Source: Alphaproteobacteria bacterium (GTDB lineage: Bacteria; Pseudomonadota; Alphaproteobacteria; JBMOFM01). From it: 64,000 nt of DNA. The stretch spans positions 50,013-114,012 of the forward strand of contig JBMOFM010000006.1 of the NCBI GenBank assembly GCA_049318825.1. Direction: 5' to 3'. Position numbers and translations under genes: made by a program. Below the pieces are notes generated by a model, which had not been told where the DNA came from, ran no database searches, and saw only the letters and a program-made list of their open reading frames with translations. Every line of letters begins with the position of its first letter. Position 1 is the stretch's first letter. Positions 16,073 through 49,812 of the stretch are shown in pieces.

Positions 16073-16079
16073 GGTAATA

Positions 16080-17915: not shown

Positions 17916-17970
17916 GGTGTTTCGCTGTACGCAGCATTATCTGCGGTGAATTTTGGATGAGGTGTGGTGC

Positions 17971-32851: not shown

Positions 32852-34450
32852 ATGGATAATAGTCAAGAAAACCAACCGCTAATCGCTTTAGGCTCGCTGC
32901 GTGCAAAATATTTGCCACGGGTGAAAGATATTATCACCATGGAAAAAATCTCCCGCATGCATCGGGGGGATTTGGCCTATGAGGTAAAAAAAATTATCAC
33001 CGAAGAGTTGGCGCGCGACGGGGTGGAGCTTAACCGCCTCGATCAGCGGGATTTAATCACCCTTGTGTTGAATTTATTGGTGGCAGAAACCAGTGCTACC
33101 CCCACAGCAGAAATACCCGCGCCCACAATCATTGAAAAACCAGCCCCCATTGCTGAAATACCAGCTCCACCACCGCCAGCTGCATCTTCTGCTCGCCCAC
33201 GGGTGGAAGCAGCGCGCAACCAAATACAAGGGTTATTGCTGGATAGAATTGATGCCAGTGCCGCAGCACGGCTACCACGCAATGAGTTGCAGCAACAAAT
33301 TATTGAGTTGGTAGGCGATTTATTGGTTGAAAAAAGAATGCAGCTTACCGGCCCTGAAACCTTAGAGCTGGTAGAAAAGCTGCTGGATGATATGCTGGGT
33401 TTTGGGCCATTAGAACCTCTATTGGCCGATGAAACCGTAACCGATATTATGGTGAACGGCCCAGCCAATGTGTATGTTGAGCGCAAAGGCAAGCTAACAC
33501 TTACCGATGTAAAATTTCGTAATAATGCGCATGTGATGGCGATTGCCACCAGAATTGTAACAGGGGTGGGGCGGCGGGTGGATGAATCGGTACCCCTGTG
33601 CGATGCCCGCTTACCAGATGGTAGCCGCGTGAACATCATTATTCCGCCACTTGCAATTGATGGGCCTTCTATTTCTATTCGTAAATTTTCTAAGAAAAAA
33701 ATTACCTTAGAAACCATGGCCAACCAAAATAATATTTCCCCTGCCATGCGCCGCGTTTTAGAAATAGCAGGGAAATGTCGCCTGAATATTTTAATTTCTG
33801 GCGGTACGGGTTCTGGAAAAACCACCATGCTGAACGCCATTTCAAAAATGATTGATGAGCAAGAACGCATTGTTACCATTGAAGATGCCGCTGAGCTGCA
33901 ATTACAGCAGCCGCATGTGGTGCGCTTGGAAACAAGGCCAGCCAATTTAGAAGGCGATGGCGAAATTTCCATGCGTGATTTAGTAAAAAACTCGCTGCGG
34001 ATGCGCCCCGACCGTATTATTCTAGGCGAGGTGCGCGGCGCAGAAGCGGTGGATATGTTGCAGGCCATGAATACAGGCCATGATGGCTCGCTGGCAACTA
34101 TTCACGCTAACCGCCCGCGTGAAGCCATTACGCGGTTGGAGAATTTGGTGGGCATGGCTGGTATTAATTTAGCGCCGCGCGCTATTCGCATGCAAATTGC
34201 CTCGGCTGTGGAAATTATTGTACAAATCAGCCGCATGCGCGATGGTGTGCGCCGCGTGACCTATATCACTGAATTGGTGGGGCTGGAAGGCGATATTATT
34301 TTAATGCAGGATTTATTTACCTATGAGGTAACAGGTGAAGGCGAAGATGGTAAGCTGATTGGCCAATTCAAATCTTCTGGCTTGCGCCCACATTTTTACC
34401 CCAAGGCAGAATATTTTGGTTTGGGAAAAGCCCTCATGGAATTGATTTAG
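32852..34450 (+). CDS. cpaF: CpaF/TadA-type secretion ATPase (type II/IV secretion NTPase), orphan
   Basis: Walker A ILISGGTGSGKTT; Asp/His boxes (IVTIEDAAEL, GHDGSLATIHANRPREAITRL). There is a long N-terminal region with a Pro/Ala-rich linker (IPAPTIIEKPAPIAEIPAPPPPAASSARP). No other tad/cpa genes are in the window. Confidence 0.75.
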   Translation: MDNSQENQPLIALGSLRAKYLPRVKDIITMEKISRMHRGDLAYEVKKIITEELARDGVELNRLDQRDLITLVLNLLVAETSATPTAEIPAPTIIEKPAPIAEIPAPPPPAASSARPRVEAARNQIQGLLLDRIDASAAARLPRNELQQQIIELVGDLLVEKRMQLTGPETLELVEKLLDDMLGFGPLEPLLADETVTDIMVNGPANVYVERKGKLTLTDVKFRNNAHVMAIATRIVTGVGRRVDESVPLCDARLPDGSRVNIIIPPLAIDGPSISIRKFSKKKITLETMANQNNISPAMRRVLEIAGKCRLNILISGGTGSGKTTMLNAISKMIDEQERIVTIEDAAELQLQQPHVVRLETRPANLEGDGEISMRDLVKNSLRMRPDRIILGEVRGAEAVDMLQAMNTGHDGSLATIHANRPREAITRLENLVGMAGINLAPRAIRMQIASAVEIIVQISRMRDGVRRVTYITELVGLEGDIILMQDLFTYEVTGEGEDGKLIGQFKSSGLRPHFYPKAEYFGLGKALMELI

Positions 34451-34540: not shown

Positions 34541-35029
34541 ATGTATTCAATTCTTAATAACGGTATTTCCAGCGACCAGAAAAAAGATATTGATTGTCCT
34601 AGTTTGCAAAGAATATTTAACCACTCTATAATAGATGAATTGCAACCTGCCGATAACCCAGTTTTATGGGATGGGATTGTACATATTTGTAATGAATTAT
34701 CGGTTGCTATGCCGGTTATTTATATTATTGAACACCCTATTCCAAGAATTAACACGATTAACGTCACCGGCTCTATAGCAATAACCAGTTCTTTTCTGGC
34801 ACTGCCTGACGCCGAGATCCGCCATCATTTAGCAGCGATTGCCCATGAAATAGGTCATAGTTTTTGTGAACCAGAAGAAAAATTATCTAAAGAGTATTTG
34901 GATATTGCCCTTTTATATGGGGAGTACGCCCTTTTATATAGGGATACCATACAAACAATGATGCAATTAGAAAAATATGCAGCAGCACCGTTGTTTTTTG
35001 CTTTGGTTGAAAAAAACTCACCTACATGA
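34541..35029 (+). CDS. M48-like zinc metallopeptidase, N-terminal part (HExxH); split gene
   Basis: IAHEIGHSF zinc-binding motif. No signal peptide or TM. Confidence 0.4.
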   Translation: MYSILNNGISSDQKKDIDCPSLQRIFNHSIIDELQPADNPVLWDGIVHICNELSVAMPVIYIIEHPIPRINTINVTGSIAITSSFLALPDAEIRHHLAAIAHEIGHSFCEPEEKLSKEYLDIALLYGEYALLYRDTIQTMMQLEKYAAAPLFFALVEKNSPT

Positions 35030-36680: not shown

Positions 36681-36789
36681 TGTTCTGTCCTTAATCTACT
36701 TGCGATGATTTGTTTGTAGATTGATATGTAAATAAATGCAATGATTACCATCACTATTATTGTGTTTTTATGGCATAAAAGCAGCGAGT

Positions 36790-37221
36790 ATGAAAATCAT
36801 GAAAAAAACAACAACAATCATGGCCGCCTTTTCTGTGTTGGCTGTGTTATCCGTTACCAATAGTCACTACGCACAAGCAGAAGCTGTTAAAGCTGGATCT
36901 CATGTAGCAACCCCAGCTCTTGGTGTGGCGGCTAAAAAAGCAGCGCCCAAAATGGCAGACCCGCAGAAAGTAGATTGCAATGGTTTTAGTGAAAAAGAAT
37001 TGATGGAAAATGCTAAAATTCCAGATTTTAGAAAATCTAACGGTTCAATTTACTATAATGAGAGATTGGGTGGGGTGGATGTTGGTCAACAAAATGTGAA
37101 AGCCAAACGTGCCGCTTTAGTGAATGCGTTGGATCAAACCACCAAAGAAGAGCGCAATAAAAAAGCGATTGATGAATTTTTTAAGGCACAGCGCGCGCAA
37201 ATTCGTAAGCGTTGTTTATAA
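36790..37221 (+). CDS. small secreted protein, unknown
   Basis: Signal peptide MKKTTTIMAAFSVLAVLSVTNSHYAQA. Basic and helical, with two Cys near the ends. Confidence 0.35.
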   Translation: MKIMKKTTTIMAAFSVLAVLSVTNSHYAQAEAVKAGSHVATPALGVAAKKAAPKMADPQKVDCNGFSEKELMENAKIPDFRKSNGSIYYNERLGGVDVGQQNVKAKRAALVNALDQTTKEERNKKAIDEFFKAQRAQIRKRCL

Positions 37222-37242: not shown

Positions 37243-38391
37243 GTGGCCATGCTGCTCGTTCTCAATATTGGCTCTTCTAGCATCAAATTTGCTTTATTTC
37301 ATGCGAAAGAGGCGATTGTTGCCAGTGTGGGTTATTGGAGTTTTGCCAATAACCAGTTGGTTGTGGATGGGATAAAATACCCGTTTTCTGATACTGCTGG
37401 CACCGATAAGCTGTTGGTATTATTGGAATATTTGCAGCGTCTTAACCCTAGTTATTTAGCGCCTGAAGCCATTATTCACCGCGTGGTGCATGGCGGTAAT
37501 ATTTATACAGGCATTACGGAAATTAATGATGCGGTACTGCAAGATTTAGAGCAATTTTCTAGCTTTGCGCCTTTGCATCAGCCCATTGCTTTAGCGGCTA
37601 TACATGTTTTGCGGCAGAAATTTCCAACAATCAGGCAATATGCTTGTTTTGATACCGCATTTCATCATCATCAGCCGCGGTTAAACCGTTTATTTGCCTT
37701 GCCCTTGGCCATGGAAGAACAGGGTATTGTGCGTTATGGTTTCCATGGTCTTTCTTACGGCTACATTACGGGGCAATTACAGCAACTGGTTACAAATTAT
37801 GCGCAGCAACGTTGGATTATTGCCCATTTGGGCAGTGGTGCCAGCGTGTGTGGTTTGAAAAATGGCAAAAGTTTTGCCAGTAGCATGGGGTTTTCTGCCC
37901 TTGATGGTTTAATGATGGGCACGCGCTGTGGCCGGTTGGATGCAGGGGTTTTATTGCATTTATTGCGGGCTGGGTGGGATGTAAAACAGCTGGAACAATT
38001 ATTATACAAAGAATCTGGCTTACAAGGTATCTCTGGCATTTCGGGGGATATGCAAATATTGCAGCAGAGTTCTGTGCCCAATGCGGCCTTAGCCGTGGAA
38101 TTATTCATTGAACGCTTGGTAGAAGAAATTGGTTTAATGGTGGCAAAGCTCAATGGTGTGGATGGCTTAATATTTACTGGTGGTATTGGTGAGCATAGTG
38201 CTTCAATTCGTGCGCAAACAGTAGCCCGTTTGGGTTGGTTGGGGGCAACGCTGGATGAAGAAGCCAATAAAGAAAGAAGAATGCGTATAGATTCTGCATC
38301 CTCTCTTGTTTCTTTATGGTGCATGGCCACTAATGAAGAGCAGCAAATGGCAGAGGAATATAAAAAATGGATAAGCCAATTATCGATTTAA
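37243..38391 (+). CDS. ackA: acetate (or short-chain acyl) kinase
   Basis: LVLNIGSSSIKFALF, HLGSGASVCG and the ASKHGT-fold motifs. 382 aa, slightly short. No pta is adjacent. Confidence 0.75.
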   Translation: MAMLLVLNIGSSSIKFALFHAKEAIVASVGYWSFANNQLVVDGIKYPFSDTAGTDKLLVLLEYLQRLNPSYLAPEAIIHRVVHGGNIYTGITEINDAVLQDLEQFSSFAPLHQPIALAAIHVLRQKFPTIRQYACFDTAFHHHQPRLNRLFALPLAMEEQGIVRYGFHGLSYGYITGQLQQLVTNYAQQRWIIAHLGSGASVCGLKNGKSFASSMGFSALDGLMMGTRCGRLDAGVLLHLLRAGWDVKQLEQLLYKESGLQGISGISGDMQILQQSSVPNAALAVELFIERLVEEIGLMVAKLNGVDGLIFTGGIGEHSASIRAQTVARLGWLGATLDEEANKERRMRIDSASSLVSLWCMATNEEQQMAEEYKKWISQLSI

Positions 38392-39155
38392 CGGGTAAAA
38401 AAGCCTTGGTGATTGGGGTGGCTAATGCTGCATCCTTAGCTTTTGGTTGTGCCCAGCAATTAAAACAGGCAGGGGCAGATATTGCCTTAACCTATCTCAA
38501 TGAAAAGACCAAAAACTATATACAGCCATTAGCGGTTGAGCTTAATGCCACTACACACCCTTATGATGCTCGTCAGAAAGATCCTGATGCCGAAGATAGT
38601 CTAGAGCAGTTGATTGAAGGGGTAGTAAAACCGTGGCAACAGGTGGATGTTGTCATTCATTCCATTGCTTTTGCGCCGTTACCAGATTTGCATTTACCTT
38701 TAAGTCAAGTATCGGCCGCTGGCTTTGCGGAGGCCATGGATATTTCGTGTCATTCTTTTATTCGTTTGGCGGGGCTGGTACAGCCTTTCATGAAAAAAGG
38801 TGGCTCCTTAATCACCATGAGCTATTATGGAGCAGAAAAAGTGGTGCCCAATTATGGTATGATGGGGCCAGTAAAAGCCGCATTAGAAGCCACGGTGCGC
38901 TATTTGGCTTATGAAATGGGCGACGCGGCTATTCGCGTGAATGCTATTTCAGCAGGGGCAGTGGCCACCCGTGCTGCGGGCGGCCTCAAAGATTTTTCCC
39001 ATTTACTGGATGAATCGGTGAAAAAATCCCCTATCCATCGCCTAGTACAGCCCAGCGATATAGGGGCATTAGCTGCTTTTCTTGCCAGCCCAGCCGGCCA
39101 AGCCATTAGTGGGGAAACCATTTATGTGGATTCAGGTTACCATGTGGTGGATTAG
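38367..39155 (+). CDS. fabI: enoyl-[ACP] reductase (NADH) FabI
   Basis: GKKALVIGVAN, YYGAEKVVPNYGMMGPVKAALEATVRYLA (Y-x6-K). Overlaps the ackA 3' end by 25 nt. Confidence 0.85.
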   Translation: MDKPIIDLTGKKALVIGVANAASLAFGCAQQLKQAGADIALTYLNEKTKNYIQPLAVELNATTHPYDARQKDPDAEDSLEQLIEGVVKPWQQVDVVIHSIAFAPLPDLHLPLSQVSAAGFAEAMDISCHSFIRLAGLVQPFMKKGGSLITMSYYGAEKVVPNYGMMGPVKAALEATVRYLAYEMGDAAIRVNAISAGAVATRAAGGLKDFSHLLDESVKKSPIHRLVQPSDIGALAAFLASPAGQAISGETIYVDSGYHVVD

Positions 39156-39247
39156 ATAGGGGAATGAGGGGCAAAAAAACATTGCTTGGGCACAAAACAT
39201 CGCTATAATAATGAAAGTTTATTTCAATAAAGAAAGGTTAAAATATT

Positions 39248-40036
39248 GTGAGTAATGAAGCAGCCGAAATGGAAGCACAGGAAAAATATAGCACAATGAT
39301 GCTGGCGGTGGATGCGATCAGAGCCTATCAAGAAAAAAACTCTGATTTTATTTGGCAGAGAAAAGAAAATTTTCTGAGCGAATATCGACAGGGTCGGCGT
39401 GATTTTGCAGGTGAAGATTTGCGCGGGTTGTGCCTTGAATATAGCGGTATCCCACAATTTGAGAATTTAGTGCTGGATGATGCTAATGTAAGTGGCAGTC
39501 AATTCACAAGAGTAAAGTTCATTAATTTAAGCGCGAAAAATGCCCTATTCACTGATGTGGAAATGATAGAGATTATTGCTGAAGGGGCTGATTTCAGCGG
39601 TACTAATTTAGATAATATTGATGGTCATGAAGCCAGATTAGGCGGTTCAAATTTTTTTGGTGCGTCCCTCATTTATGCAAGTTTACGAAAAAGCAGTTTA
39701 TGGGAGTGTAATTTTACCGATGCGGATTGTACTTATGCCCAATTGAATGAGGCAAGCCTGAGAAGAGCAGATTTATGGAAAGCGTGTTTCTTGGCCGCCG
39801 GTCTTACAGAGGCTAAATTACAAGAAGCGAAATTGTACGATGCGGATTTTAGATTAGCGAACATTAGCGCCGCAAAATTTGAAAAGGCCGTGCCCAATAG
39901 CCAAACAATATGGACGGGCAGCCGCAATAGCCCTGAATCATTGCCAGAAGGCATGACGGCAGAGGCATTCAGCCAATTACAAAACCCTTCTGTAAAAAAA
40001 GCTGCCCCTAAAAGAAAGTTGGGATTGTGGTGGTAA
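39248..40036 (+). CDS. pentapeptide-repeat protein, paralog 1
   Basis: 262 aa, possible GTG start. The central region has runs of A-[DN]-[LF]-x-x pentads (ADFSGTNLDNIDGHEARLGGSNFFGASL...ADLWKACFLAAGLTEAKLQEAKLYDADFRLANISAAKF). Confidence 0.65.
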   Translation: MSNEAAEMEAQEKYSTMMLAVDAIRAYQEKNSDFIWQRKENFLSEYRQGRRDFAGEDLRGLCLEYSGIPQFENLVLDDANVSGSQFTRVKFINLSAKNALFTDVEMIEIIAEGADFSGTNLDNIDGHEARLGGSNFFGASLIYASLRKSSLWECNFTDADCTYAQLNEASLRRADLWKACFLAAGLTEAKLQEAKLYDADFRLANISAAKFEKAVPNSQTIWTGSRNSPESLPEGMTAEAFSQLQNPSVKKAAPKRKLGLWW

Positions 40037-40189
40037 TTATTGCGTTTTTTACTTGAATAGGGACTGAAACTTTTAATGCAAAAATCGAGGCCAAAATCAG
40101 GAAGAACATCACCCGCCGCAAAAAAATATTGCGTGGTCACGAAAAATCGCTACAATAAAAAAATTTATTTCAATGAAAGTTAAAATATT

Positions 40190-40966
40190 ATGAGCAATGA
40201 AGCAGCCGAGATGGAAGCACAGGAAAAATATCGCACAATGATGCTGGCGGTGAATGCGATCAGAGCCAATGAAGGAGTGTCTGGTCAGGCAGCACAAAGT
40301 TTTGCTAGCGATTATCAACATGGGCGGCGTGATTTTGCAGGCGAAGATTTGAGTGGGTTGTGGCTTAACTATAGCGGTATTCCACAATTTGAGAATTTAG
40401 TGCTGGATGGTGCCAAAGTAACTGGCGGTGTATTCACAGGAGTAAAGTTCATTAATTTAAGCGCGAGAGATGCCCTATTCACTGATACGCAAATGCAAAG
40501 GGTTATTTGTGAAGGTGCTGATTTCAGCGGCGCTAATTTAGATAATATTGATGGTCATGAAGCCAGATTAAATGGTTCAAATTTTTTTGGTGCGTCCCTA
40601 ATTCTCGCAAGTTTACGAAAAAGCAGTTTATGGGAGTGTAATTTTACCGATGCGGATTGTACTTATGCCCAATTGAATGAGGCAAGCCTGAGAAGAGCAG
40701 ATTTATGGAAAGCGTGTTTCTTGGCCGCCGGTCTTACAGAGGCTAAATTACAAGAAGCGAAATTGTACGATGCGGATTTTAGATTAGCGAACATTAGCGC
40801 CGCAAAATTTGAAAAGGCCGTGCCCAATAGCCAAACAATATGGACGGGCAGCCGCAATAGCCCGAAAACCTTGCCAGAAGGCATGACGGCAGAGGCATTC
40901 AGCCAATTACAAAACCCATATGTAAAAAAAGCTGCTCCCACAAAAAAATGGGGATTGTTGTGGTAA
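40190..40966 (+). CDS. pentapeptide-repeat protein, paralog 2
   Basis: 258 aa. The N-terminal 20 aa and C-terminal 150 aa are near-identical to paralog 1; the middle has diverged. Confidence 0.65.
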   Translation: MSNEAAEMEAQEKYRTMMLAVNAIRANEGVSGQAAQSFASDYQHGRRDFAGEDLSGLWLNYSGIPQFENLVLDGAKVTGGVFTGVKFINLSARDALFTDTQMQRVICEGADFSGANLDNIDGHEARLNGSNFFGASLILASLRKSSLWECNFTDADCTYAQLNEASLRRADLWKACFLAAGLTEAKLQEAKLYDADFRLANISAAKFEKAVPNSQTIWTGSRNSPKTLPEGMTAEAFSQLQNPYVKKAAPTKKWGLLW

Positions 40967-41017
40967 TTATTGCGTTTTTTACTTGAATGGGAATGAAATT
41001 TATTGGCGCGCAATATA

Positions 41018-41926
41018 CTATCTCAGGCTTTGTGGGCGCTGCCATAAACAGGCGGTAAATAATAGAAGCCCTGCCACCAATACCATCATGGGGGCGGCCA
41101 CAAAAGCATGTTCTATGCCTAGCCATGCGGGCAGTAATATAGCCAAACTATAACCAAGAGTGGCACTGAAAGCAGCCAATATGGAACTTAAAATAATTTG
41201 GTGGGCAAGATTTTGGGTAAGCAAGCGCGCGGTTGCTGGGGGGCATACCAGAAAGCCTACCACCAGAATAGAACCCACCGCTTCAAAAGCAGCCACCAAG
41301 CATAACACTAATAAACCCAGAAAAATCAATTGCCATAAGCCCACTTGGTATCCAGCCACCCGTGCAAAAATGGGATCAAAACATATAAGACGTGTTTCTT
41401 TGAATAATAGGAGTAGCAATACGCCTAATCCCAGCAATAATAACCACAACATCGCCAATTGGCGGGGCATATTTAATAGGGTTTCTGTATGAAATAGATC
41501 CTGTATCTGTTGCAATTCTGGCCAATATACCATTTCCAGCGCCCCATAAAGGGCATGTTGTGCATCTAAATGCACCTGTCTGCCCAATTGTTGCTCTAGC
41601 AGCATTACCCCCAAGGCAAACATGCCGGTTAGTACCACCCCCATGGCCATTGACGGTTGTAAGCCCCCCCAGCGGCTAAGGGCAGCCATTAGTAAAACCG
41701 CCAGTAAACAGGCGGCGCCTGCCCCCAACATCATGAATAAAGGCGAAATAATACCAGTAAGCAAAAAGGCAACCGCTAGCCCCGGTAGCACCACATGGCT
41801 TAGGGCATCCCCCAGTAAGGCATGGCGGCGCAATAATAAATAATTACCCAACAGGGCACAATTCATGGCGGCTAAAATCGCCACCAGTAAAGGGGCGGCA
41901 TCTACAGCCCAAAAACTACTCATCAT
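41018..41926 (-). CDS. metal ABC transporter permease (Znu/Mnt/Tro-type), subunit 2
   Basis: 302 aa, polytopic, ABC-3 family pattern. Adjacent to a second permease, an ATPase and a cluster-A-1 SBP. Confidence 0.7.
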   Translation of the reverse strand: MMSSFWAVDAAPLLVAILAAMNCALLGNYLLLRRHALLGDALSHVVLPGLAVAFLLTGIISPLFMMLGAGAACLLAVLLMAALSRWGGLQPSMAMGVVLTGMFALGVMLLEQQLGRQVHLDAQHALYGALEMVYWPELQQIQDLFHTETLLNMPRQLAMLWLLLLGLGVLLLLLFKETRLICFDPIFARVAGYQVGLWQLIFLGLLVLCLVAAFEAVGSILVVGFLVCPPATARLLTQNLAHQIILSSILAAFSATLGYSLAILLPAWLGIEHAFVAAPMMVLVAGLLLFTACLWQRPQSLR

Positions 41927-42772
41927 TTAGGCTATTCTCCGCAATAAACGAACGGGTAGGGCTAATAACACTAGGCCAAAGCCCAATAAAACAATCATTG
42001 AACCGGTGGGAATATTGGGGTAGCGGCTGGATAATATAACCCCTAACATGGCACTGGTTACACCCAATAAAGCGGCCATAGCAAAAAGTGGCCGCAGGCG
42101 TTGGGTTAGCATTTTAGCGGCGGCGGCTGGCATAATTAACATGGCTAATACCAATACTACCCCCACGGTTTTTAAGCCCAAACATACAACCACCAGCATT
42201 AAGGATGTCATCACCCCATCCAGCCTAGCTGCTTGATAGCCTTGTAAATGGCTGAAATTGGGATCAAAAGCCAACATGATATATTGCTTGCGTAGAATGA
42301 AGGCAATGAATAATACCGCCACCATGGCAAGGCTTAAAAAAATAATCTCATCCTTTTGCAAGGAAGCGGTTTGCCCTAATAAAAAAGAATCCAGCCCCGC
42401 AATGCTGCCTAGCGGTAAATGTTGAATATAGCCCAATAATAAAAGACCTGCCGCAAAAAAAACGCTTAAGACCACGGCTATGGCGGTATCAGCACTTAAT
42501 ATGCTGCGCCGCTGCAGCCAATTGACGGTAAACATGCCAAGCCAAGCAGTGAGAAAAGCCATGAACAGCATGAGGGGTAAATGTCGTCCCTCGTGCCAGC
42601 CTAAGGAAAGTGCCAGTAAAAAACCCAGTGCCACCCCCGGTAGGGTGGCATGGCTAGCGGCATCTGCGGCCATGGCGCGGCCACGCAGCATCATGAAAAC
42701 GCCGATTACTGCTGCCCCTAAGCCTAAAATAGCGGTACCCAATAACACTAAAAGAGAATTGTAACCAATCAT
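41927..42772 (-). CDS. metal ABC transporter permease, subunit 1
   Basis: 281 aa, polytopic, ABC-3 family. Confidence 0.7.
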   Translation of the reverse strand: MIGYNSLLVLLGTAILGLGAAVIGVFMMLRGRAMAADAASHATLPGVALGFLLALSLGWHEGRHLPLMLFMAFLTAWLGMFTVNWLQRRSILSADTAIAVVLSVFFAAGLLLLGYIQHLPLGSIAGLDSFLLGQTASLQKDEIIFLSLAMVAVLFIAFILRKQYIMLAFDPNFSHLQGYQAARLDGVMTSLMLVVVCLGLKTVGVVLVLAMLIMPAAAAKMLTQRLRPLFAMAALLGVTSAMLGVILSSRYPNIPTGSMIVLLGFGLVLLALPVRLLRRIA

Positions 42773-43716
42773 GGCGCCACAGCCCGAGCACGGGGGGCAG
42801 AATAATGAGGGGCTGCTTGGGCAGCAAACCCTTCTATTTTTTTGGCGTCTGGTGAAAAAACGCCTTGCCTGATGTGGGGAATATTTCTTAACCTTGCCTC
42901 AAATGACCCTGCTTCAAATGCCTGCACCAATTCTCTACCCGAATAAATTTTCCCATCCTTGCTATGGTCAATCACAACTGATTCTGAATGAGCTGCAGCC
43001 ATTACTCGATCATGGACTTGAGGATAAAACTCTTGCCATTGATTTAAGAAGGCATTGATTTCTGGATTATTGAAATTTTTCCAGTAACCGGGCCATAATA
43101 TTTCCTGAAATTCAGGCATTTTTTTTGTTTCTAGATGTTCTATCTCTAAAGAGGCTTGGGCATATTCTTTGGGTTCTTTTGTAGGGTTTTCCAATATTAA
43201 TTGTCTTTCTTCTCTGGCTTCCTGTACCAATTTTCTAAAGGGTTCAAGCATGGGATTAACAATATAGCTAAGGTTTGTTTCAAAACGTTCAAGTATGAAC
43301 ATCATTTTATGAAAATCTGCTTTGGCCTCAGCCTCAATCACCTTTTCAACAAACCCTTCTTTATCCAGCCGATAAGGATTGAGGTGTAAATTATCTTTAT
43401 TGCGATGATGACCCTCTAACTCATGGGGTAAGGTTTCAGCATAATGGAGGACTATTAATGGCTCCAATGGATTATCCAAGTTACAATTAGCCGTTACACG
43501 ATTAGGGTTCAAATTAAGAAATAACTTATTATCATCACTATTCCATATTGAAGCATGAGGACCGTTTTCAGAAATAAGAACGGGCACATCATGGGTTTTC
43601 AGATATTCTATCGATAATTTGCCTTTATTGGTTTTATTTAGCTCAATCAGAATATTAAAAAACCAAAGAACATGGCGTTCTTTATCGCTATCGCCTTGCC
43701 AATCAAATGGAAGCAT
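42769..43716 (-). CDS. hypothetical 315-aa cytoplasmic protein inserted between the ATPase and permease genes of the metal ABC operon
   Basis: No recognisable motifs except LPHELEGHHRN. ATGA overlap with the permease start. No signal peptide. Confidence 0.4.
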   Translation of the reverse strand: MLPFDWQGDSDKERHVLWFFNILIELNKTNKGKLSIEYLKTHDVPVLISENGPHASIWNSDDNKLFLNLNPNRVTANCNLDNPLEPLIVLHYAETLPHELEGHHRNKDNLHLNPYRLDKEGFVEKVIEAEAKADFHKMMFILERFETNLSYIVNPMLEPFRKLVQEAREERQLILENPTKEPKEYAQASLEIEHLETKKMPEFQEILWPGYWKNFNNPEINAFLNQWQEFYPQVHDRVMAAAHSESVVIDHSKDGKIYSGRELVQAFEAGSFEARLRNIPHIRQGVFSPDAKKIEGFAAQAAPHYSAPRARAVAP

Positions 43717-43788
43717 CGTTTTATGCCCTTATGGCTATTGTTATGCTTAACAATATATCATTTATGTAAAATATACTCAACCTATCTG

Positions 43789-44523
43789 TCACCCAAATAA
43801 TAGTTGGCCAGCATAGGCTTGTTGTAATATAGCGGGGGTAAATACTTCTTTTACCGTGCCACAGCCATAAAGATGACGGTTCAAAATAACAGCATGGCTA
43901 AAATATTGAGGCACGCTAGGCAAATGATGATGTACACAAATAATGGTTTTGCCTTTTTGCTGTTCGGCTAGCATCAGCTTAAATAATAATTCTTCACTGG
44001 CAGCATCCACACCCGCCAGTGGTTCATCCATGATATAACAATCAGCCTGTTGTACTAAGGCTCTGGCAAAAAACGCCCGTTGCTGTTGCCCGCCCGATAG
44101 GGCACCAATCGAGCGGCGGGCAAAATCGGCTAGCCCCACCGCTTCTAAAGCAGCATGGGCTTTTTCTTTATCCTGCTTATTCAGCCCCCGCAACCAACCG
44201 CGTTGGCGGTATAAACCCATGCCGACCACCTCGGCGGCGGATACTGGAAATTGCCAATCCACCGCTGCCCGTTGTGGTATATAGGTAATGCGTTGGCGGA
44301 TGGAATCTAGCGCTTGATTCCAAAATAGCACCTTGCCTTTTTCTTTAGCCACCAACCCCACCATGGCTTTTACCAGCGTGCTTTTACCCGCACCATTAGC
44401 ACCGATAACCGCAGTAAGGCTGGCAGTGGGCAGCGAGAAACTCACATCAATTAAAGCGGGTTGGTTTTGGTAAGAAACCGATAAATTTTCAACATTCAGG
44501 CATATATCGGGGCTGGCATTCAT
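43789..44523 (-). CDS. metal ABC transporter ATP-binding protein
   Basis: Walker A GANGAGKST, signature LSGGQQQR, Walker B YIMDEP. Confidence 0.85.
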   Translation of the reverse strand: MNASPDICLNVENLSVSYQNQPALIDVSFSLPTASLTAVIGANGAGKSTLVKAMVGLVAKEKGKVLFWNQALDSIRQRITYIPQRAAVDWQFPVSAAEVVGMGLYRQRGWLRGLNKQDKEKAHAALEAVGLADFARRSIGALSGGQQQRAFFARALVQQADCYIMDEPLAGVDAASEELLFKLMLAEQQKGKTIICVHHHLPSVPQYFSHAVILNRHLYGCGTVKEVFTPAILQQAYAGQLLFG

Positions 44524-45473
44524 GGCTGTGCTGCCTCGCTGGTTAATTTTCCGCTCATGCCATTGGCGGGAACATTACCGCCCAGTGCCTTGCCAATCAT
44601 GGTCACATTATGGTCAATCATGCCCACATAAGTGCCTTCATAGGTTAAGGGTTTGCCCATGGCATCAGAAAATAAATGGCCGCCAATCAGTAAGCGGTGA
44701 TTTTTTGCGGCCGAGCCTTCTACCAAGGCCTTGATGTTGCGGTCACTTACCGAAGTTTCGGCAAATACGGCTGGTATATTGCGGGCTACAATTAAGGCCA
44801 CCAGCTCTTCAATTTGCTTTAAGCCTGCTTCGCTATCGGTTGAAATGCCTTGTATGCCATGCACTTCAATGCCATAACGCTGGCCAAAATAATGAAACGC
44901 ATCATGAGCGGTAATTAAAGCGCGTTTTTCGGCAGGAATAGAAGCAATAACCTGTTTGGCATAGGCATCAAGCTGTTGTAATTCTTGATCATAGGCCGTT
45001 AAATTGCGGGTAAATTCGGCTTCATGCTGGGGCAAGGCCTTGATTAAGGCAGCGGCAGTTTTGTGTAATGCTGCGCGCCAGCGTTCAACATCCATCCACA
45101 CATGCGGGTCGATGCCATGATGGGCATTGCCGCTACCATCATCGGCCACGGCCAGCACCAATTTGTTGGCGGCTAATTTTTCCAACAAATCAGTCATTTT
45201 TCCTTCTAAATTCAGGCCGCTATAAAACACCATATCGGCTTGTTGTAGCTTTACCATATCGCTGCGGGTGGGGCGGTAGAGATGGGGATCCACCCCTTCA
45301 CCCATCATGATGTCCAACCTTACATGATCGCCGGCCACATGGCGCACTAAATCCCCCACCTGTGCGGTGGTGGTCACAATAAATAACGGCGGGGCAGCAT
45401 GGGCATAAGCCGCAAAAAATAGCCAACCTAGACCCAACACAGCCCATAAACAGAAACGATAACAAAATTTCAT
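44520..45473 (-). CDS. periplasmic metal-binding protein (ZnuA/MntC/TroA cluster A-1 SBP)
   Basis: Signal peptide; His-containing metal-site motifs; HDAFHYFGQRYGIEVHGIQGIS. Confidence 0.8.
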   Translation of the reverse strand: MKFCYRFCLWAVLGLGWLFFAAYAHAAPPLFIVTTTAQVGDLVRHVAGDHVRLDIMMGEGVDPHLYRPTRSDMVKLQQADMVFYSGLNLEGKMTDLLEKLAANKLVLAVADDGSGNAHHGIDPHVWMDVERWRAALHKTAAALIKALPQHEAEFTRNLTAYDQELQQLDAYAKQVIASIPAEKRALITAHDAFHYFGQRYGIEVHGIQGISTDSEAGLKQIEELVALIVARNIPAVFAETSVSDRNIKALVEGSAAKNHRLLIGGHLFSDAMGKPLTYEGTYVGMIDHNVTMIGKALGGNVPANGMSGKLTSEAAQP

Positions 45474-46016: not shown

Positions 46017-46439
46017 ATGAAACAAAAACTTGTTGATGCTAGCACCCAAGCCAAGCGTTTTGAGACATTGCGGGTGGCGCATCAAACAGAAACCACCGAA
46101 GATTATGTGGAATTGATTGCTGATTTATTGGCCGCCAATGGTGAAGCCAGATTGGTGGATTTATCGCGCCGTTTTGGGGTTTCACATGCCACGGCTAATA
46201 AAATTATTGCGCGGTTACAAAAAGAGGGGTTTGTAGAAAGCCAGCCTTACCGTTCATTGTTTTTAACCCCTGAAGGGCTGGCCCTAGCGCAAGCATGCAA
46301 AAAACGGCACAATATTGTGTTGCAATTTTTGCTGCATATTGGCGTAAGCCGCGAAAATGCTGAAACCGATGCAGAAGGCATCGAGCATCATGTTAGTCAA
46401 GAAACCCTAGCGGCTTTTGCCCGCTTTACAACCGCCTGA
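46017..46439 (+). CDS. mntR: DtxR/MntR-family metal-dependent transcriptional regulator
   Basis: HTH VDLSRRFGVSHATANKIIARLQKEGFV plus a dimerisation/metal-binding helix region. 140 aa, no SH3-like domain, so MntR-type. Confidence 0.75.
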   Translation: MKQKLVDASTQAKRFETLRVAHQTETTEDYVELIADLLAANGEARLVDLSRRFGVSHATANKIIARLQKEGFVESQPYRSLFLTPEGLALAQACKKRHNIVLQFLLHIGVSRENAETDAEGIEHHVSQETLAAFARFTTA

Positions 46440-46483: not shown

Positions 46484-47791
46484 ATGAAGGGTTTAACGCG
46501 CCAGCAATGGATTGTTTTTATTGCGGCTTGGTTGGGTTGGGGCTTTGATGTTTTTGACGGATTGCTGTTCAATTACGTTGCCCCCAATTGCGTGCCAACC
46601 CTGTTGGGGCTTGAGATTGGCTCTCCTGCTGCCAAGGCTGCCACTTTGTATTGGACAGGCCTCATCACCTCTATGCTATTGCTGGGCTGGGCGGCAGGTG
46701 GAATTATTTTCGGCTATATTGGCGATAGGTTAGGGCGCAGTAAAACCCTGTTGCTCACCATGTTATTATATGCTTTGGGTACTGGCTTATGTGCTTTTGT
46801 GCCGAATATGGAATTATTATTACTGTGCCGTTTTATTGCCAGCCTTGGTATTGGTGGGGAATGGGCAGCGGGGGCTTCCATGGTGGCCGAAGCCATGCCC
46901 GAAAAATACCGCGTGGAAGCAGGGGCGTTGTTATATACCTCTGCGCCCATTGGGTTGTTTTTGGCCACAGCGGTGAATGCGATGATTACTGGTTTATTTC
47001 CTGATCAACCTGAGGTCTCGTGGCGTTATGTTTTTCTTTGTGGGTTAATTCCTGCTGCTTTAGCCTTTGTTATCCGTTTTTTCTTAAAAGAACCAGAACG
47101 CTGGCAAGAGGTGGCACAAAAGACAAAACCACCCCGTATTAGTGAATTATTTTCAGCCGAAAACCGCCGCTTTACTCGCAGCGGCGTATTAATGGCTTTG
47201 ATTGCTTTGCTCACATGGTGGAGTTGCAATGCTTTTATTCCCGTGGTGGCGGTGGGTCTAGGCCATGCCAGTGCAGAGGCTACAGGCATTATCGCCACGC
47301 AAGGCTTATTAGAAGGCTGGAAATCATGGCTTACTTCTGGCTTTAATTTGGGTGGCTTATTGGGTACATTGCTCACTATTCCAGCGGCCAAAATATTGGG
47401 CAGAAAAAAAATGTTCAGCCTTTATTTTGCGCTGGCTTCTCTTGCGTTACTCACGGCTTTTAGTGGGTTCATGCCGCAAGAGAAAATAGTGTGGACGGGC
47501 TTATATTTTGTGATTGGTCTCACGGTTTTTGGCGTATTTGGTAGTTTTACTTTTTACCTACCGGAACTTTTTCCTACCAGATTGCGCGCTACGGGTTCGG
47601 GCTTTTGCTATAATATTGGCCGCGTGATTACCTCTGTGGGCCCTTTTTTGGTCGGCAGCATCGCCGCACAAAAATCCAACGCCCTGCAAGGCGCGTTGGA
47701 TTTATTATTCTGGGTGGGCTTTATTCCCTTAATTGGCATTTTACTGATGCCTTTAGTGATAGAAACAAAAGGCCAAACATTGCGGGATTAG
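46484..47791 (+). CDS. MFS transporter
   Basis: 435 aa with 12 predicted TM and MFS loop motifs (G-x-x-x-D-R-x-G-R-like GDRLGRSKTLL). Confidence 0.7.
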   Translation: MKGLTRQQWIVFIAAWLGWGFDVFDGLLFNYVAPNCVPTLLGLEIGSPAAKAATLYWTGLITSMLLLGWAAGGIIFGYIGDRLGRSKTLLLTMLLYALGTGLCAFVPNMELLLLCRFIASLGIGGEWAAGASMVAEAMPEKYRVEAGALLYTSAPIGLFLATAVNAMITGLFPDQPEVSWRYVFLCGLIPAALAFVIRFFLKEPERWQEVAQKTKPPRISELFSAENRRFTRSGVLMALIALLTWWSCNAFIPVVAVGLGHASAEATGIIATQGLLEGWKSWLTSGFNLGGLLGTLLTIPAAKILGRKKMFSLYFALASLALLTAFSGFMPQEKIVWTGLYFVIGLTVFGVFGSFTFYLPELFPTRLRATGSGFCYNIGRVITSVGPFLVGSIAAQKSNALQGALDLLFWVGFIPLIGILLMPLVIETKGQTLRD

Positions 47792-49593
47792 TTGGATTGG
47801 CCATTATCAATTCTCTCCCCCATGAGGGCGCCATAGGCGGTGCTGAAGCCGGGGGTAGTGGCACCATTATATACCCCGCCTTCATGGGTGAAGTTCTGCA
47901 ATAGTTGGGTGTGTACCACCGCTATACCCGCTTGTACCAAATGCTGAACAAGTTGTGCCAATTCTATTCTGTTTTCTATAGCGGTGCCTTGATTTTTTAA
48001 CAGAAAGCGGCAGCGTTGATGATCCACCAGATAGGGGTCCATCAAGCTGGGCCACACCTCTTGCCCACGGTTGGTGATGCGTTGTAGCACATAATTTTCT
48101 CCCGCTGCTTCTTGCAATTGCTGCGCTAAAGATTGCAGAGCAATGATGGTTAATAACCGCCCCTGTTCTTGATATTTTTTCAATAGGGCAAGGGCTTCTG
48201 GTGCTGGCATTTGCTCAATAGATGCCGTGAAATAGCTATTATTAAACGACAAGCCGGCTTTTAAGGTGCGCACCCCCCAACTGATATATTCGCGTACACT
48301 CTCTGTTGTATGAAAATGGCTCACATTTAAGATGTCTTCATAATTTAAGCCTGTTTTCTGGTGCCAATATTGTAGAATATTGGCCTCTAATCCGTGCCAT
48401 TCAATAAACACATCCATCCCTAGAATATCGGTTTTTTGGGCTTTTACCAACATGGGTGGCGCCACGATTTTTTCTTTATGCGCGCGAAACTTATCCCATT
48501 TCAAGCAGCGTGCCTGTAGTGCCCCTTCTGGCACTTTTTGGCCGGATTTTATTTTTTCTAAACGCTGGGCAATTTCATCGCCAAATTCGTGGCAACCACG
48601 CTTTAATGAAACCGATGTTTCTTTCTCTTTTTCTTCTTGGTAAGCCCCGCGAATATCGCCAGTATGCACACCGTCTTGTAATGTCCATAACAGGGCATGG
48701 TATAAATGGCGCGCCGCTGTTTGATTACCATCGCCAATATGCACCAGCATATCAATAGCGGCCATTAATAAAGCCGTGGGGTTGGCCAGATTTTTGCCAG
48801 CAATATCGGGCGCGGTGCCGTGCATGGCTTCAAACATGGCATAATCTTGACCAATATTGGCTGAGCCCACCAAGCCAACGCCCCCCGCTAATTTTGCTGT
48901 AATATCTGAACCAATATCCCCAAAAATATTACTGGTAACCACCGCATCATATTTTTCTGGTTTAACTGCCAGTTCTGCTAGGCCATCATCAATATTTTTG
49001 AAAAATGAGGTGATGTGGGGCTCATATTCTTTAGCCAATTGCCAGAATATTTTTTCAAATAACCCGCCAGTATTTTTCAAAATATTGGGTTTTTCTAGCC
49101 CCAACATGGTTTTTCTACCCTGCTGCAGGGCCAATTCAAAAGCAATACGAATCGCTTTTTCACAGCCTTGATGGCTCATTAAACGCAAGGCCATTTTTAC
49201 ATTGGGGCTTTCATCATATTCAATGGCGGCGTATAAATCTTCAATATTTTCGCGCACAAATAATAAATCCATTTGTGGAAAATGGCTATCCACCACGGGG
49301 TAGAAGGAAGCACAGCGGCGCACCGAAACGCTTTGTTCAAAACCCTTACGCACCGTTACATTAAAGCTTTTACTGCCACCAATAGAAGAGGGGGTTTCTG
49401 TTGGCCCTTTCAGCACTATTTTATGCTTGCGAATAAGCGCAAAACAATCAGTAATTTCTTGCGCGCTGGCTTCTTTACCCAAATGGGCAGGAATAAAATC
49501 GATTTTCGCGCCCACTTTTTGTAAAAGACTAACCACCACATCACTAATTTCAGGCCCAATACCATCACCTTTAACCAAAACCACTGAACGCAT
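47788..49593 (-). CDS. isocitrate/isopropylmalate dehydrogenase-family enzyme fused to a roughly 255-aa C-terminal domain of unknown function
   Basis: N-terminal 345 aa: VVLVKGDGIGPEI, NIFGDIGSDITAKLAGGVGLVGSANIG, GTAPDIAGKNLANPTALLMA. The C-terminal 255 aa have no recognisable motif. Start set to ATG 49593 (RBS ggaga); the track extension to 49794 reads antisense through tRNA-His. Confidence 0.65.
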   Translation of the reverse strand: MRSVVLVKGDGIGPEISDVVVSLLQKVGAKIDFIPAHLGKEASAQEITDCFALIRKHKIVLKGPTETPSSIGGSKSFNVTVRKGFEQSVSVRRCASFYPVVDSHFPQMDLLFVRENIEDLYAAIEYDESPNVKMALRLMSHQGCEKAIRIAFELALQQGRKTMLGLEKPNILKNTGGLFEKIFWQLAKEYEPHITSFFKNIDDGLAELAVKPEKYDAVVTSNIFGDIGSDITAKLAGGVGLVGSANIGQDYAMFEAMHGTAPDIAGKNLANPTALLMAAIDMLVHIGDGNQTAARHLYHALLWTLQDGVHTGDIRGAYQEEKEKETSVSLKRGCHEFGDEIAQRLEKIKSGQKVPEGALQARCLKWDKFRAHKEKIVAPPMLVKAQKTDILGMDVFIEWHGLEANILQYWHQKTGLNYEDILNVSHFHTTESVREYISWGVRTLKAGLSFNNSYFTASIEQMPAPEALALLKKYQEQGRLLTIIALQSLAQQLQEAAGENYVLQRITNRGQEVWPSLMDPYLVDHQRCRFLLKNQGTAIENRIELAQLVQHLVQAGIAVVHTQLLQNFTHEGGVYNGATTPGFSTAYGALMGERIDNGQSN

Positions 49594-49717
49594 ATATTCT
49601 CCTATTGATAAAAGGGCAGTTAGAGAGCCATTTTTCTTTGCATGTGTCATCCTGACTTGAAAACAATATTGACGAAAGAGTAAAAATCTGAATAATGCAG
49701 TTTTATTAGTTAAGCAT

Positions 49718-49793: not shown

Positions 49794-49812
49794 TTCTTCA
49801 ACGATAATCTAT

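Follow-up and report, generated by a model that had tools for sequence, protein, structure and literature searches.

Within a 64-kb stretch of DNA from a metagenome-assembled alphaproteobacterial genome (hereafter, the window), a unit of ~0.94 kb comprising a leader, a gene, and a short 3′ tail is present twice, head to tail, at 39171–40072 and 40118–41001. Each unit encodes one pentapeptide-repeat protein (PRP), a rod-shaped kind of protein; the two are here called PRP-A and PRP-B, and for both an identical protein is annotated at NCBI as a pentapeptide repeat-containing protein (Table 1). A repeat search of the window returned direct-repeat start-to-start spacings of 947, 942, and 930 nt. 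When unit A was compared with the window by blastn, it aligned to unit B at 88.8% identity over 902 columns, with no further copy in the 64 kb. Across their entire length, the two proteins share 82% identity (BLASTP, E = 3e-160). The tandem repeat is genuine and lies well outside what chance would produce. A sequence-only reading of this DNA had proposed a ~940-bp tandem duplication giving two pentapeptide-repeat paralogs, and on this point repeat spacings, blastn alignment, BLASTP, and Pfam all agree.

Table 1. Features of the tandem pentapeptide-repeat locus, with positions counted along the 64-kb window.
Feature	Position	Strand	Description
Leader of copy A	39171..39247	+	aligned with leader B
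Promoter-like pair, leader A	TTGCTT 39182–39187, 16 nt, TATAAT 39204–39209	+	hexamers read directly from the sequence
Shine-Dalgarno-like motif GAAAGG	within leader A, 39171..39247	+
PRP-A gene	39248..40036	+	262 aa, GTG start; MFZ4762111.1; from the ORF list
Hypervariable patch, copy A (codons 27–48)	39326..39391	+	end of helix 1, turn, and helix 2 of the predicted hairpin; dN 0.69, dS 0.59
Moderately diverged segment, copy A (codons 49–143)	39392..39676	+	first four predicted beta-helix coils; pentad register
Putative gene-conversion tract, copy A side	39677..39933	+	257 nt, identical to 40607–40863; codons 144–229, coils 5–8
Diverged 3′ end, copy A (codons 229–262 and stop)	39934..40036	+	encodes the basic C-terminal tail
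3′ tail of unit A	40037..40072	+	resembles the tail of unit B
Unique spacer between units	40073..40117	+	45 nt; no counterpart upstream of copy A
Leader of copy B	40118..40189	+	aligned with leader A
Promoter-like pair, leader B	TTGCGT 40129–40134, 16 nt, TACAAT 40151–40156	+	hexamers read from the sequence
PRP-B gene	40190..40966	+	258 aa, ATG start; MFZ4762112.1; from the ORF list
Hypervariable patch, copy B	40268..40321	+	4 codons shorter than in A
Putative gene-conversion tract, copy B side	40607..40863	+	257 nt, identical to 39677–39933
3′ tail of unit B	40967..41002	+	next to a convergent metal ABC permease gene (41018–41926, minus strand), whose 3′ end it abuts

The leaders and downstream regions had been described as near-identical between the copies. 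Alignment bore out the similarity of leaders and tails but lowered its degree: the leaders share ~74–82% identity with small indels, and downstream the 22 nt past the stop of copy A (40037–40058) are identical in copy B, but similarity is gone by ~40072. Those 22 nt belong to a 29-nt identical run (40030–40058) that begins inside gene A and ends in the 3′ tail. The spacer that follows has no 14-mer match elsewhere in the 64-kb window. The outer flanks of the two copies differ as well: copy A lies next to the fabI stop codon, and copy B next to the 3′ end of the permease gene. A short direct repeat lies at the unit boundaries (ATAGGGGAATGA at 39156, ATAGGGACTGAA at 40057, and AATGGGAATGAA at 40986) and might mark the original end-points of the duplication; we gave it no weight, because similar matches with two mismatches occur elsewhere in the window.

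The neighbours are housekeeping genes: ackA and fabI precede the pair, and a metal ABC operon follows it. The GC content of the pair (0.42 and 0.44) deviates by no more than ~1 sd from the average of the window (0.457 ± 0.036), and no mobile-element genes were found among the window proteins scanned. Each copy may carry its own weak sigma-70-like promoter, judging from the hexamers in its leader. A consensus promoter scan listed neither pair, the −35 criterion failing; in leader A, this is because the −35 matches at only 3 of 6 positions. Scanning and folding revealed no terminator-like hairpin between the copies, so co-transcription of the two genes is also possible. Folding z-scores of −0.66 to +0.85 gave no sign of structured RNA in the leaders and spacer, where Rfam returned only a distant tRNA and no riboswitch.

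The pentapeptide assignment, first made from the letters of the DNA, held in Pfam. PF00805 scored 72.4 bits for PRP-A and 71.1 bits for PRP-B (cut-off 20.2), PF13599 scored 49.6 and 56.7 (cut-off 38), and PF13576 scored 37.7 and 42.2 (cut-off 27). PRPs are recognized by at least eight contiguous pentapeptides that fit the consensus (PMC8145042). PRP-A carries 29 pentads in unbroken register at residues 69–213, preceded by ~3–4 less regular ones; measured against that consensus (PMC8145042), the i−2 residue fits in 28 of the 29, and 22 have L or F at the centre. Both proteins thus belong to the pentapeptide-repeat superfamily (PF00805 / Rfr fold).

We built an AlphaFold2 model of PRP-A from a 44-sequence alignment. 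The model has a pLDDT of 84 overall and above 90 for residues 49–215, and it places two helices (3–30 and 32–47) in an N-terminal hairpin, followed by a beta-helix with one short strand per pentad that runs uninterrupted and without loops from ~69 to 213. The C-terminal 45 residues are of low confidence, with a short helix at 238–244 and pLDDT below 50 for residues 247–262. All of the best 50 Foldseek matches in the PDB are PRPs. Each protein is accordingly predicted to form a right-handed, four-sided beta-helix of ~8 coils with 29 in-register pentads, and both are predicted to be soluble and cytoplasmic, with no signal peptide. Their predicted surface is mildly acidic, with a net charge of −8 for PRP-A and −4 for PRP-B and outward-facing residues summing to −7 and −4. 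The C-terminal tail, which in PRP-A ends ...VKKAAPKRKLGLWW, is basic (net charge +5 and +4 over the last 15 residues of A and B), Trp-ended, and predicted to be disordered.

Searches of 5.8 billion clusters and 1.84 billion representatives returned the tandem neighbour as the only full-length relative of each protein; the remaining 34,597 matches cover the repeat core only. No orthologue was found in GTDB species genomes, where the sole match was a Chloroflexota PRP at 38% identity, nor in JGI metagenomes (one match, 28% identity), nor on plasmids (all matches below 35% identity). The N-terminal helical hairpin is predicted to be lineage-specific in both proteins. The source lineage is poorly sampled and deeply branching. 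The best non-self match of a neighbouring DUF4175 protein is 28% identical.

The best matches in both sequence and structure were stand-alone cyanobacterial PRPs (Np275/Np276, HetL (All3740), and Rfr32). They share with PRP-A and PRP-B pentads of A(D/N)LXX type in unbroken register, a right-handed, four-sided beta-helix (predicted here), and an N-terminal alpha-helical cap. Identity is only 20–35%, however, and is confined to the repeat core, and the 48-aa N-terminal hairpin and basic C-terminal tail are without detectable relatives. The NCBIfam cyanobacterial equivalog models likewise scored below their cut-offs (HetL 65.7 against 260; Alr5209 58.7 against 125). Np275 and Np276 are also encoded by adjacent genes (PMC8145042), but those look like a single gene split in two, whereas PRP-A and PRP-B are a duplicated pair. 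YjbI-like PRPs have a widespread "GVxxWNxWR" cap, and we also considered whether the N-terminal helices correspond to it. MAFFT aligned the two in a suggestive way (AVDAIRAYQEKN against GVDAWNAWREEN), but homology is not supported: the probability from hhalign was only 4%, and its alignment was limited to the first pentads.

A third homolog had been proposed at 26971. The ORF in question (26971–27837) has no detectable homology to PRP-A or PRP-B: BLASTP gave E = 1.9, neither phmmer nor tblastn returned a match at E ≤ 10, and hhalign assigned 31% probability over 15 columns outside the repeat region. Its scores against the Pfam pentapeptide models (23.1, 17.6, and 16.8 bits) fall below the respective cut-offs of 38, 20.2, and 27. 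There is no three-member PRP family in the window.

We then compared the two genes block by block, which refined the earlier description. Codons 1–26 are 94% identical (5 differences in 78 nt). Codons 27–48 are hypervariable, with 56% nucleotide identity, 24 differences in 54 aligned nt, and a 4-codon indel, while codons 49–143 are 87% identical (38 differences in 285 nt; dN 0.135, dS 0.176). The "central ~90 codons" said to differ thus divide into a short hypervariable patch and a longer, moderately diverged segment; the differing peptides cited as examples, AYQEKNSDFIWQRKENFLSEYRQ and ANEGVSGQAAQSFASDYQH, are present exactly as quoted. From codon 229 to the stop (the last 34 codons), identity is again 87% (13 differences in 103 nt; dN 0.09, dS 0.36). 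The last ~150 codons had been called near-identical, which is true of a perfect 257-nt tract but not of the whole, because that tract is flanked by 13% divergence. In gene order, dS is 0.145, 0.59, 0.18, 0, and 0.36, and dN/dS is 0.34 (codons 1–26), 1.18 (27–48), ~0.77 (49–143/145), and 0.26 (229–262).

The 257-nt tract is the longest identical run between the copies, the runner-up measuring 47 nt, and it sits within 413 nt of flanking sequence that is 13% diverged. A run of at least 257 nt arose in none of 20,000 permutations, whose maximum was 150 nt, and an analytic estimate puts its chance probability at ~2e-8. Synonymous changes number 0 at ~50 sites within the tract and 22 at ~110 sites elsewhere (Fisher p = 2.6e-4). 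Taken one by one, the dS differences among the non-identical blocks do not reach significance (p = 0.08 and 0.20). The sequence-only reading had offered two origins for the mosaic, and one of them, gene conversion, is strongly supported for this tract by the synonymous test and the permutations in this comparison of two sequences.

Our preferred reading, to which we assign a probability of about 70%, is an old tandem duplication that carries a lineage-specific PRP gene and has been partly homogenized by gene conversion. In this reading, the duplication is a genuine chromosomal one, of a unit of ~0.94 kb. It is old rather than recent: outside the perfect tract, silent and non-coding sequence has diverged by ~0.15–0.6 per site. 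Since then, the copies would have exchanged sequence by intrachromosomal gene conversion, with the latest event leaving 257 bp, codons 144–229 and predicted beta-helix coils 5–8, perfectly identical. The graded divergence of the remaining blocks suggests that there were earlier exchanges of different ages. Paralog-specific sequence would remain in helix 2 of the N-terminal hairpin (22 codons, with the 4-codon indel), in coils 1–4, and in the final 34 codons.

Concerted evolution by gene conversion is familiar in tandem bacterial paralogs, for example tufA/tufB, rRNA operons, and surface-antigen families. The PRP pair resembles these cases in its same-orientation paralogs, ~0.9 kb apart, and in a sharply bounded perfect tract within 13%-diverged sequence. 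It differs in that homogenization covers only part of the gene, the N-terminal third remaining paralog-specific. We found no discussion of PRPs in this context in the literature searched. The pattern is real but ordinary gene-family evolution.

The other origin on offer was diversifying selection, in which positive selection on a target-binding surface, rather than mere old divergence, would have created the difference in the N-terminal third, with conversion secondary. dN/dS is higher at codons 27–48 and 49–145 (1.18 and 0.77) than at codons 1–26 and 229–262 (0.34 and 0.26), the ratio of nonsynonymous to synonymous changes is 48:14 in the central part and 10:8 at the two ends (Fisher p = 0.08), and several codons of the patch differ at two or three positions. 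However, dN/dS is significantly above 1 in no block, and the patch value depends on four synonymous changes. The dS of the patch is also raised (0.59), which selection alone would explain less well than a segment that is older or of foreign origin. Of 17 replacements in the regular coils, 12 lie at outward positions, which is no significant enrichment (binomial p = 0.26), and they are spread over all four faces; each of the five inward ones is conservative. These data do not demonstrate diversifying selection on a binding face, and we regard it as unlikely, although it deserves a hearing. A diversity-generating retroelement, which would restrict the differences to adenines of one copy and have a reverse transcriptase close by, was also considered as the source of the variable region and rejected: the bases at the 54 differing sites (A15 G15 T14 C10 in copy A; A16 G14 C13 T11 in copy B) have no adenine bias, and no reverse transcriptase domain was seen among the window proteins scanned.

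Selection and conversion could also be combined in a two-member specificity system. Conversion would keep the scaffold of coils 5–8 identical, while selection would exclude conversion from the helix-2 patch and coils 1–4, such that the two proteins recognize different partners. Should the basic C-terminal tail serve as an export signal, these might include targets in a host or a competitor. We hold such a system to be improbable. If true, it would resemble, on a small scale, the diversification of antigen or effector cassettes, here in a protein family for which hardly any functions are known.

Pentapeptide-repeat proteins had further been characterized as DNA-mimic or effector-like. Neither protein reached the NCBIfam cut-off of a named PRP family (Qnr, MfpA, HetL, or PipB/PipB2). 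The general Qnr model (penta_rpt_Qnr) scored 36.2 against a cut-off of 240 and MfpA 34.1 against 360; the QnrA, B, C, D, E, S, and VC models scored 21–30 against cut-offs of 425–500; and PipB and PipB2 scored 43.3 against 274 and 38.0 against 354. With Qnr, MfpA, PipB, and PipB2 scores 6–10 times under their cut-offs, the label is not supported as a family assignment.

A DNA-mimic role would have the pair bind and protect DNA gyrase or topoisomerase IV in the manner of Qnr, MfpA, and AlbG. The proteins are like Qnr, MfpA, AlbG, and McbG in size, in beta-helix length and coil number (~8), in their mildly acidic overall charge, and in predicted fold, and the structural searches and, weakly, the sequence searches also picked up AlbG, MfpA, QnrB1, and EfsQnr. 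Besides the low Qnr and MfpA scores, cyanobacterial and synthetic PRPs of unknown function outmatch the gyrase-binding ones, and the confident part of the model, which leaves out the low-confidence C-terminal 45 residues with their short helix, shows neither a C-terminal dimerization helix nor Qnr-type loops. PRP-A and PRP-B instead carry extra terminal modules, and to our knowledge neither a ~48-aa N-terminal hairpin nor a basic tail is a feature of gyrase-protecting PRPs. The comparison on these two features also draws on PMC8145042. The genomic context is unrelated as well, with no mfpB-like or toxin-biosynthesis neighbour in the window. Such a role is doubtful.

The effector label would make the pair secreted substrates of a type IV or III system in a host-associated bacterium, with the basic tail as export signal and diversification as the source of the paralog differences. 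A positively charged C-terminal tail, such as the +5 and +4 seen here, resembles VirB/D4-type signals. The proteins are orphans, and several low-GC orphan genes lie nearby. PRP modules are known in the secreted PipB/PipB2, SopA, and NleL (PMC8145042), and the Rickettsia effector SrfD bears PRP domains that are needed for binding host Sec61 (PMC11258249). In these effectors (PipB/PipB2 of Salmonella, SopA and NleL with their N-terminal domains, and SrfD), the pentapeptide beta-helix serves as a protein-binding module. Unlike them, PRP-A and PRP-B have no family-level score, PipB and PipB2 included, and no catalytic or kinesin-binding add-ons, and by direct reading the PipB2 LFNEF motif is in neither sequence. 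T3SS, T4SS, and T6SS genes are absent from the 64 kb, where the one secretion-related gene is an isolated T2SSE-family ATPase, which also tells against "effector-like" as an assignment. The functions encoded in the window (amino-acid, biotin, and cobalamin-related, curli-like, and exopolysaccharide) are typical of a free-living cell. We consider secretion very unlikely. In a separate search for anti-phage defence, PADLOC matched neither PRP-A, PRP-B, nor five nearby orphan ORFs.

The pair might also be an artefact of metagenome assembly, produced by placing in tandem the alleles that two strains have of one single-copy gene, or by collapsing or mis-joining a repeat. The genome was assembled from a metagenome, and the 257-nt exact repeat exceeds the usual assembly k-mers, so that joining across it depends on read pairs. 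But overall the two copies are 11% different, and indels separate them further, one of 12 nt within the gene and one of ~5 nt within the leader. Stacked alleles would normally bring repeated flanking sequence with them; here, the flanking single-copy sequence is not repeated, each copy keeps the outer flank described above, and the unique 45-nt spacer joins the two. No path other than the tandem one would use each of the five distinct segments once, and there is very little chance that the duplication is an assembly product.

That the pair modulates the adjacent Mn/Zn ABC importer post-translationally, as an RfrA-like regulator, is highly improbable: the two genes adjoin a convergent five-gene metal ABC operon (41018–45473) with a DtxR/MntR-type regulator (46017–46439), the PRP RfrA of Synechocystis offers a precedent in regulating manganese uptake (PMC8145042), and the basic, Trp-ended tail could bind membranes, but what connects pair and importer is adjacency alone, convergent orientation means that they are not co-transcribed, and RfrA itself acts, by an unknown mechanism, on a transporter other than MntABC (PMC8145042). 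GTDB species genomes and JGI metagenomes held no relatives in which conservation of this neighbourhood could be followed.

The window and the protein searches yielded no partner for either protein, no informative operon link, and no relative that has been characterized. By analogy with PRPs generally, PRP-A and PRP-B may act as rigid binding scaffolds. A shared scaffold half combined with a differing N-terminal end suggests that the paralogs probably bind related partners with different specificity.

The pair adds two orphan PRPs, with a predicted lineage-specific N-terminal hairpin and a basic tail, to a superfamily that is very large and functionally obscure. The analysis corrects the earlier account in three respects: the mosaic reflects gene conversion and old divergence, with positive selection not demonstrated, the window contains no PRP family of three members, and neither "DNA mimic" nor "effector" is justified by family membership. 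As an instance of partial concerted evolution, the pair is neat and of the textbook kind, and it matters little beyond this genome. Should sister genomes of this unsampled lineage appear, it would lend itself well to finding out where in a PRP the binding specificity resides.

Two tandem pentapeptide-repeat protein (PRP) genes, PRP-A and PRP-B, make up the duplication of about 940 bp proposed by the sequence-only reading, which is real, rightly placed and for the most part correctly described. A repeat search gave direct-repeat start-to-start spacings of 947 nt in the leader, 942 nt at the gene 5' end and 930 nt over the gene remainder. In a blastn search of the first unit (leader, gene and short 3' tail) against the whole window, 39171-40072 matched 40118-41001 (902 columns, 88.8% identity), and no third copy was found. 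The two proteins share 82% identity from end to end, the peptides quoted from them in the earlier reading are both found as written, and the NCBI annotation of the source contig carries exactly these two, under consecutive accessions (MFZ4762111.1 and MFZ4762112.1). The 22 nt past the stop codon are identical between copies and similarity is gone by ~40072; the spacer that follows has no match upstream of A or elsewhere in the window.

Coordinates of the PRP pair and other features of the window
Feature	Position	Strand	Details
PRP-A gene	39248-40036	+	262 aa, GTG start
PRP-B gene	40190-40966	+	258 aa, ATG start
Spacer between units	40073-40117		~45 nt, unique
Identical tract	39677-39933 = 40607-40863		257 nt
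Proposed third homolog	26971-27837	+	288 aa, GC 0.40, GC3 0.32
Exopolysaccharide cluster	11532-18978	+	
DUF4175 protein	24400-26880	+	826 aa, TIGR02302-type
Low-GC ORFs	29940-30608, 34541-35029, 36760-37221	+	GC 0.37-0.41, GC3 0.30-0.33
T2SSE-family secretion/pilus ATPase	32852-34450	+	PF00437, 226 bits
ackA (acetate kinase)-fabI	37243-39155	+	25-nt overlap
First permease gene, Mn/Zn-type ABC operon	41927-42772		
Orphan ORF in ABC operon	42769-43716	-	315 aa, GC 0.39, GC3 0.32
ATPase gene, Mn/Zn-type ABC operon	43789-44523		
Isocitrate dehydrogenase ORF	47788-49794	-	667 aa
tRNA-His	49719-49793	+	anticodon GTG, Rfam 60.8 bits
Curlin-associated repeat protein	53582-54691	-	369 aa, PF07012, 111 bits

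Codon alignment with Nei-Gojobori counts, together with direct comparison, divided the units into blocks of unequal divergence.

Divergence between the A and B copies by block
Block	Differences	dN	dS
Leader	74-82% identity, small indels		
Codons 1-26	5/78 nt	0.05	0.15
Codons 27-48 (hypervariable patch)	4-codon indel + 24/54 nt	0.69	0.59
Codons 49-143 (coils 1-4; dN/dS block end 143/145)	38/285 nt	0.135	0.176
Identical tract (coils 5-8)	0/257 nt	0	0
Codons 229-262	13/103 nt	0.09	0.36

The sequence around the identical tract is 13% diverged. Random placement of those 54 differences on 670 positions gave no run above 150 nt in 20,000 trials (mean longest run, 53 nt); the second-longest identical run in the actual data is 47 nt, and the chance probability of a 257-nt run is ~2e-8 by analytic estimate. 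Synonymous changes number 0 in ~50 sites of the tract against 22 in ~110 elsewhere (Fisher p = 2.6e-4), and because those ~50 sites are unchanged, protein-level constraint cannot account for it. This conversion tract is most simply explained if the tandem copies recently underwent a non-reciprocal exchange, and the remaining blocks would reflect an old duplication overlaid by earlier exchanges of differing ages. Block dS values of 0.15, 0.18, 0.36 and 0.59 do not differ individually at significance (p = 0.08, 0.20); this spread, from the A/B pair with no outgroup, is compatible with older exchanges of varied age.

For the diverged middle, the earlier reading had offered gene conversion or diversifying selection on a target-binding face; the tract and the synonymous test bear out conversion, and the selected face is the part that is not demonstrated. 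That positive selection mainly drove the A/B divergence, a reading compatible with conversion, is rather unlikely. Amino-acid replacements are relatively frequent in the centre: dN/dS is 1.18 for the patch and 0.77 for coils 1-4, versus 0.26-0.34 at the ends. In no block is dN/dS significantly above 1, and dS too is highest in the patch. The N:S ratio is 48:14 in the centre versus 10:8 at the ends (p = 0.08). The pentad register, read from the sequence, runs unbroken for 29 pentads (A residues 69-213). With positions i-1, i+1 and i+2 pointing outward, 12 of the 17 replacements in regular coils are outward (10.2 expected, p = 0.26) and the 17 are distributed across all four faces, so a specific diversifying face is not demonstrated; the five inward changes are all conservative (S/G, V/T, I/V, A/C, T/A). 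Relaxed constraint, or old divergence shielded from conversion, would fit the centre equally well. A diversity-generating retroelement is excluded because the differences have no adenine bias.

Both proteins score above the gathering threshold in three Pfam pentapeptide models, in agreement with the family first assigned to them. Every NCBIfam match to a named PRP family falls far under its cut-off: HetL (66 against 260), Alr5209 (59, 125), PipB (43, 274), PipB2 (38, 354), Qnr (36, 240) and MfpA (34, 360). In 1.84 billion representatives, searched exhaustively with HMMER, 34,597 proteins matched at E <= 1e-3, among which the tandem neighbour is the sole full-length match and the rest are confined to the repeat core (~residues 40-230); word-indexed protein searches had the same outcome. 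With sub-cut-off scores and matches limited to the core, A and B are ordinary PRP superfamily members of no characterised subfamily, and their terminal modules are lineage-specific. Residues 20-31 looked suggestive of the common 'GVxxWNxWR' cap, a resemblance that hhalign (4% probability) does not bear out. GTDB species genomes, JGI metagenomes and plasmids held no related locus. This orphan status is partly a sampling effect, because the nearby DUF4175 protein, of a type typical of Alphaproteobacteria, finds no relative above 28% identity in 5.8 billion protein clusters; the genome thus comes from a deeply branching, essentially unsampled lineage.

AlphaFold2 with a two-sequence alignment was not usable (pLDDT 42); the final model, with 42 generic PRPs added, reached pLDDT 84, and >90 over residues 49-215. 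It predicts N-terminal helices at residues 3-30 and 32-47 (pLDDT 74-87) and a beta-helix with a single short strand per pentad, with low confidence in the C-terminal 45 residues. In this model the patch would take up the N-terminal hairpin's turn and its second helix. Pentapeptide-repeat proteins account for all of the best 50 Foldseek matches in the PDB, with Np275/Np276, synthetic 'beta1' solenoids and HetL first and AlbG, MfpA and QnrB1 after, a ranking repeated by PDB sequence search. Net charge is -8 for A and -4 for B; their basic C-terminal 15 residues (+5 and +4) terminate in GLWW or GLLW. That the pair are Qnr/MfpA-like DNA mimics is improbable.

The ORF beginning at 26971, previously named as a third homolog, has no detectable homology to either protein and lies outside the A/B family. 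Against A/B it gave BLASTP E = 1.9, no phmmer match at E <= 10 and no tblastn match, and against a 44-sequence PRP alignment hhalign reached a probability of 31% across 15 columns, all outside the repeats. Its Pfam pentapeptide matches (residues ~94-155) all lie under curated cut-offs, and the PDB entry that matches it best, a plant PRP, scores E = 0.29. It may contain a short PRP-like segment, as residues 95-134 are readable by eye as eight pentads. NCBI seemingly uses another start, since its records lack the exact 288-aa product. Together with four further low-GC ORFs it forms a set of compositionally distinct orphans. Three of these four, scattered amid housekeeping genes, have no Pfam or PADLOC match. 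The fourth, lying between the ATPase and first permease genes of the ABC operon, matches nothing in Pfam, NCBIfam or PADLOC and no PDB sequence; it carries a HELEGHH motif, shares 4 nt with the start of the permease gene and has neighbours of GC ~0.48, and looks like a foreign gene inserted in, and translationally coupled to, the transporter operon.

The window is a stretch of ordinary chromosome (COX3, RuvAB, ArgG, RibA, HisG, LysA, isocitrate dehydrogenase, RsmI, ackA-fabI), with two-component systems, an ECF sigma factor, a curlin-repeat protein and an exopolysaccharide cluster; it holds no transposase, integrase, T3SS, T4SS or T6SS genes, and A, B and five nearby orphan ORFs gave no PADLOC match. 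GC is 0.42 and 0.44 in A and B (GC3 0.38, 0.39), ~1 sd under the window mean of 0.457 +/- 0.036. The pair lies 92 nt downstream of ackA-fabI on the same strand; ackA and fabI are probably co-transcribed because they overlap, a pairing reminiscent of the pta-ackA-fabI operon of Sinorhizobium. Read directly, the leaders carry TTGCTT or TTGCGT, a 16-nt spacer and TATAAT or TACAAT; these stay proposed promoters because the -35 hexamers match consensus at 3/6 positions and fail the promoter-scanner rule. Rfam found nothing near the pair, and leaders and spacer show no significant RNA structure and no terminator.

Elsewhere, the T2SSE-family ATPase is isolated: no further genes for secretion or pili flank it, and a low-GC orphan ORF follows. 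The curlin-repeat protein is a CsgA-like amyloid subunit, uncommon in Alphaproteobacteria. The exopolysaccharide cluster, likely under c-di-GMP control, encodes an 816-aa protein resembling BcsB, a GT2 glycosyltransferase that bears an MshEN (c-di-GMP-binding) domain at its N terminus, a GGDEF-domain response regulator and a 673-aa ORF without Pfam match, whose longest reading overlaps the preceding gene by 179 nt. The tRNA-His lies opposite the first ~25 codons of the longest isocitrate dehydrogenase ORF, whose true start is probably downstream of it because the Pfam domain begins only at residue 70.

The sequence derives from a MAG, and an assembly artefact is very unlikely given that the copies are 11% diverged with indels, have a unique spacer and differ in their outer flanks. 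Secretion as an effector is similarly hard to credit: PRP effectors exist, such as Rickettsia SrfD (PMC11258249), but no secretion machinery was found in the window, whose gene content looks free-living. Direct reading found no signal peptide-like N-terminus in either protein. An RfrA-like modulation of the adjoining Mn/Zn transporter, for which adjacency is the sole basis (PMC8145042, section 2.2), is the least probable of all.

PRP-A and PRP-B are ordinary tandem paralogs in partial concerted evolution, within a very common repeat-protein family. They would act as rigid binding scaffolds that differ in specificity N-terminally and have their C-terminal coils in common.
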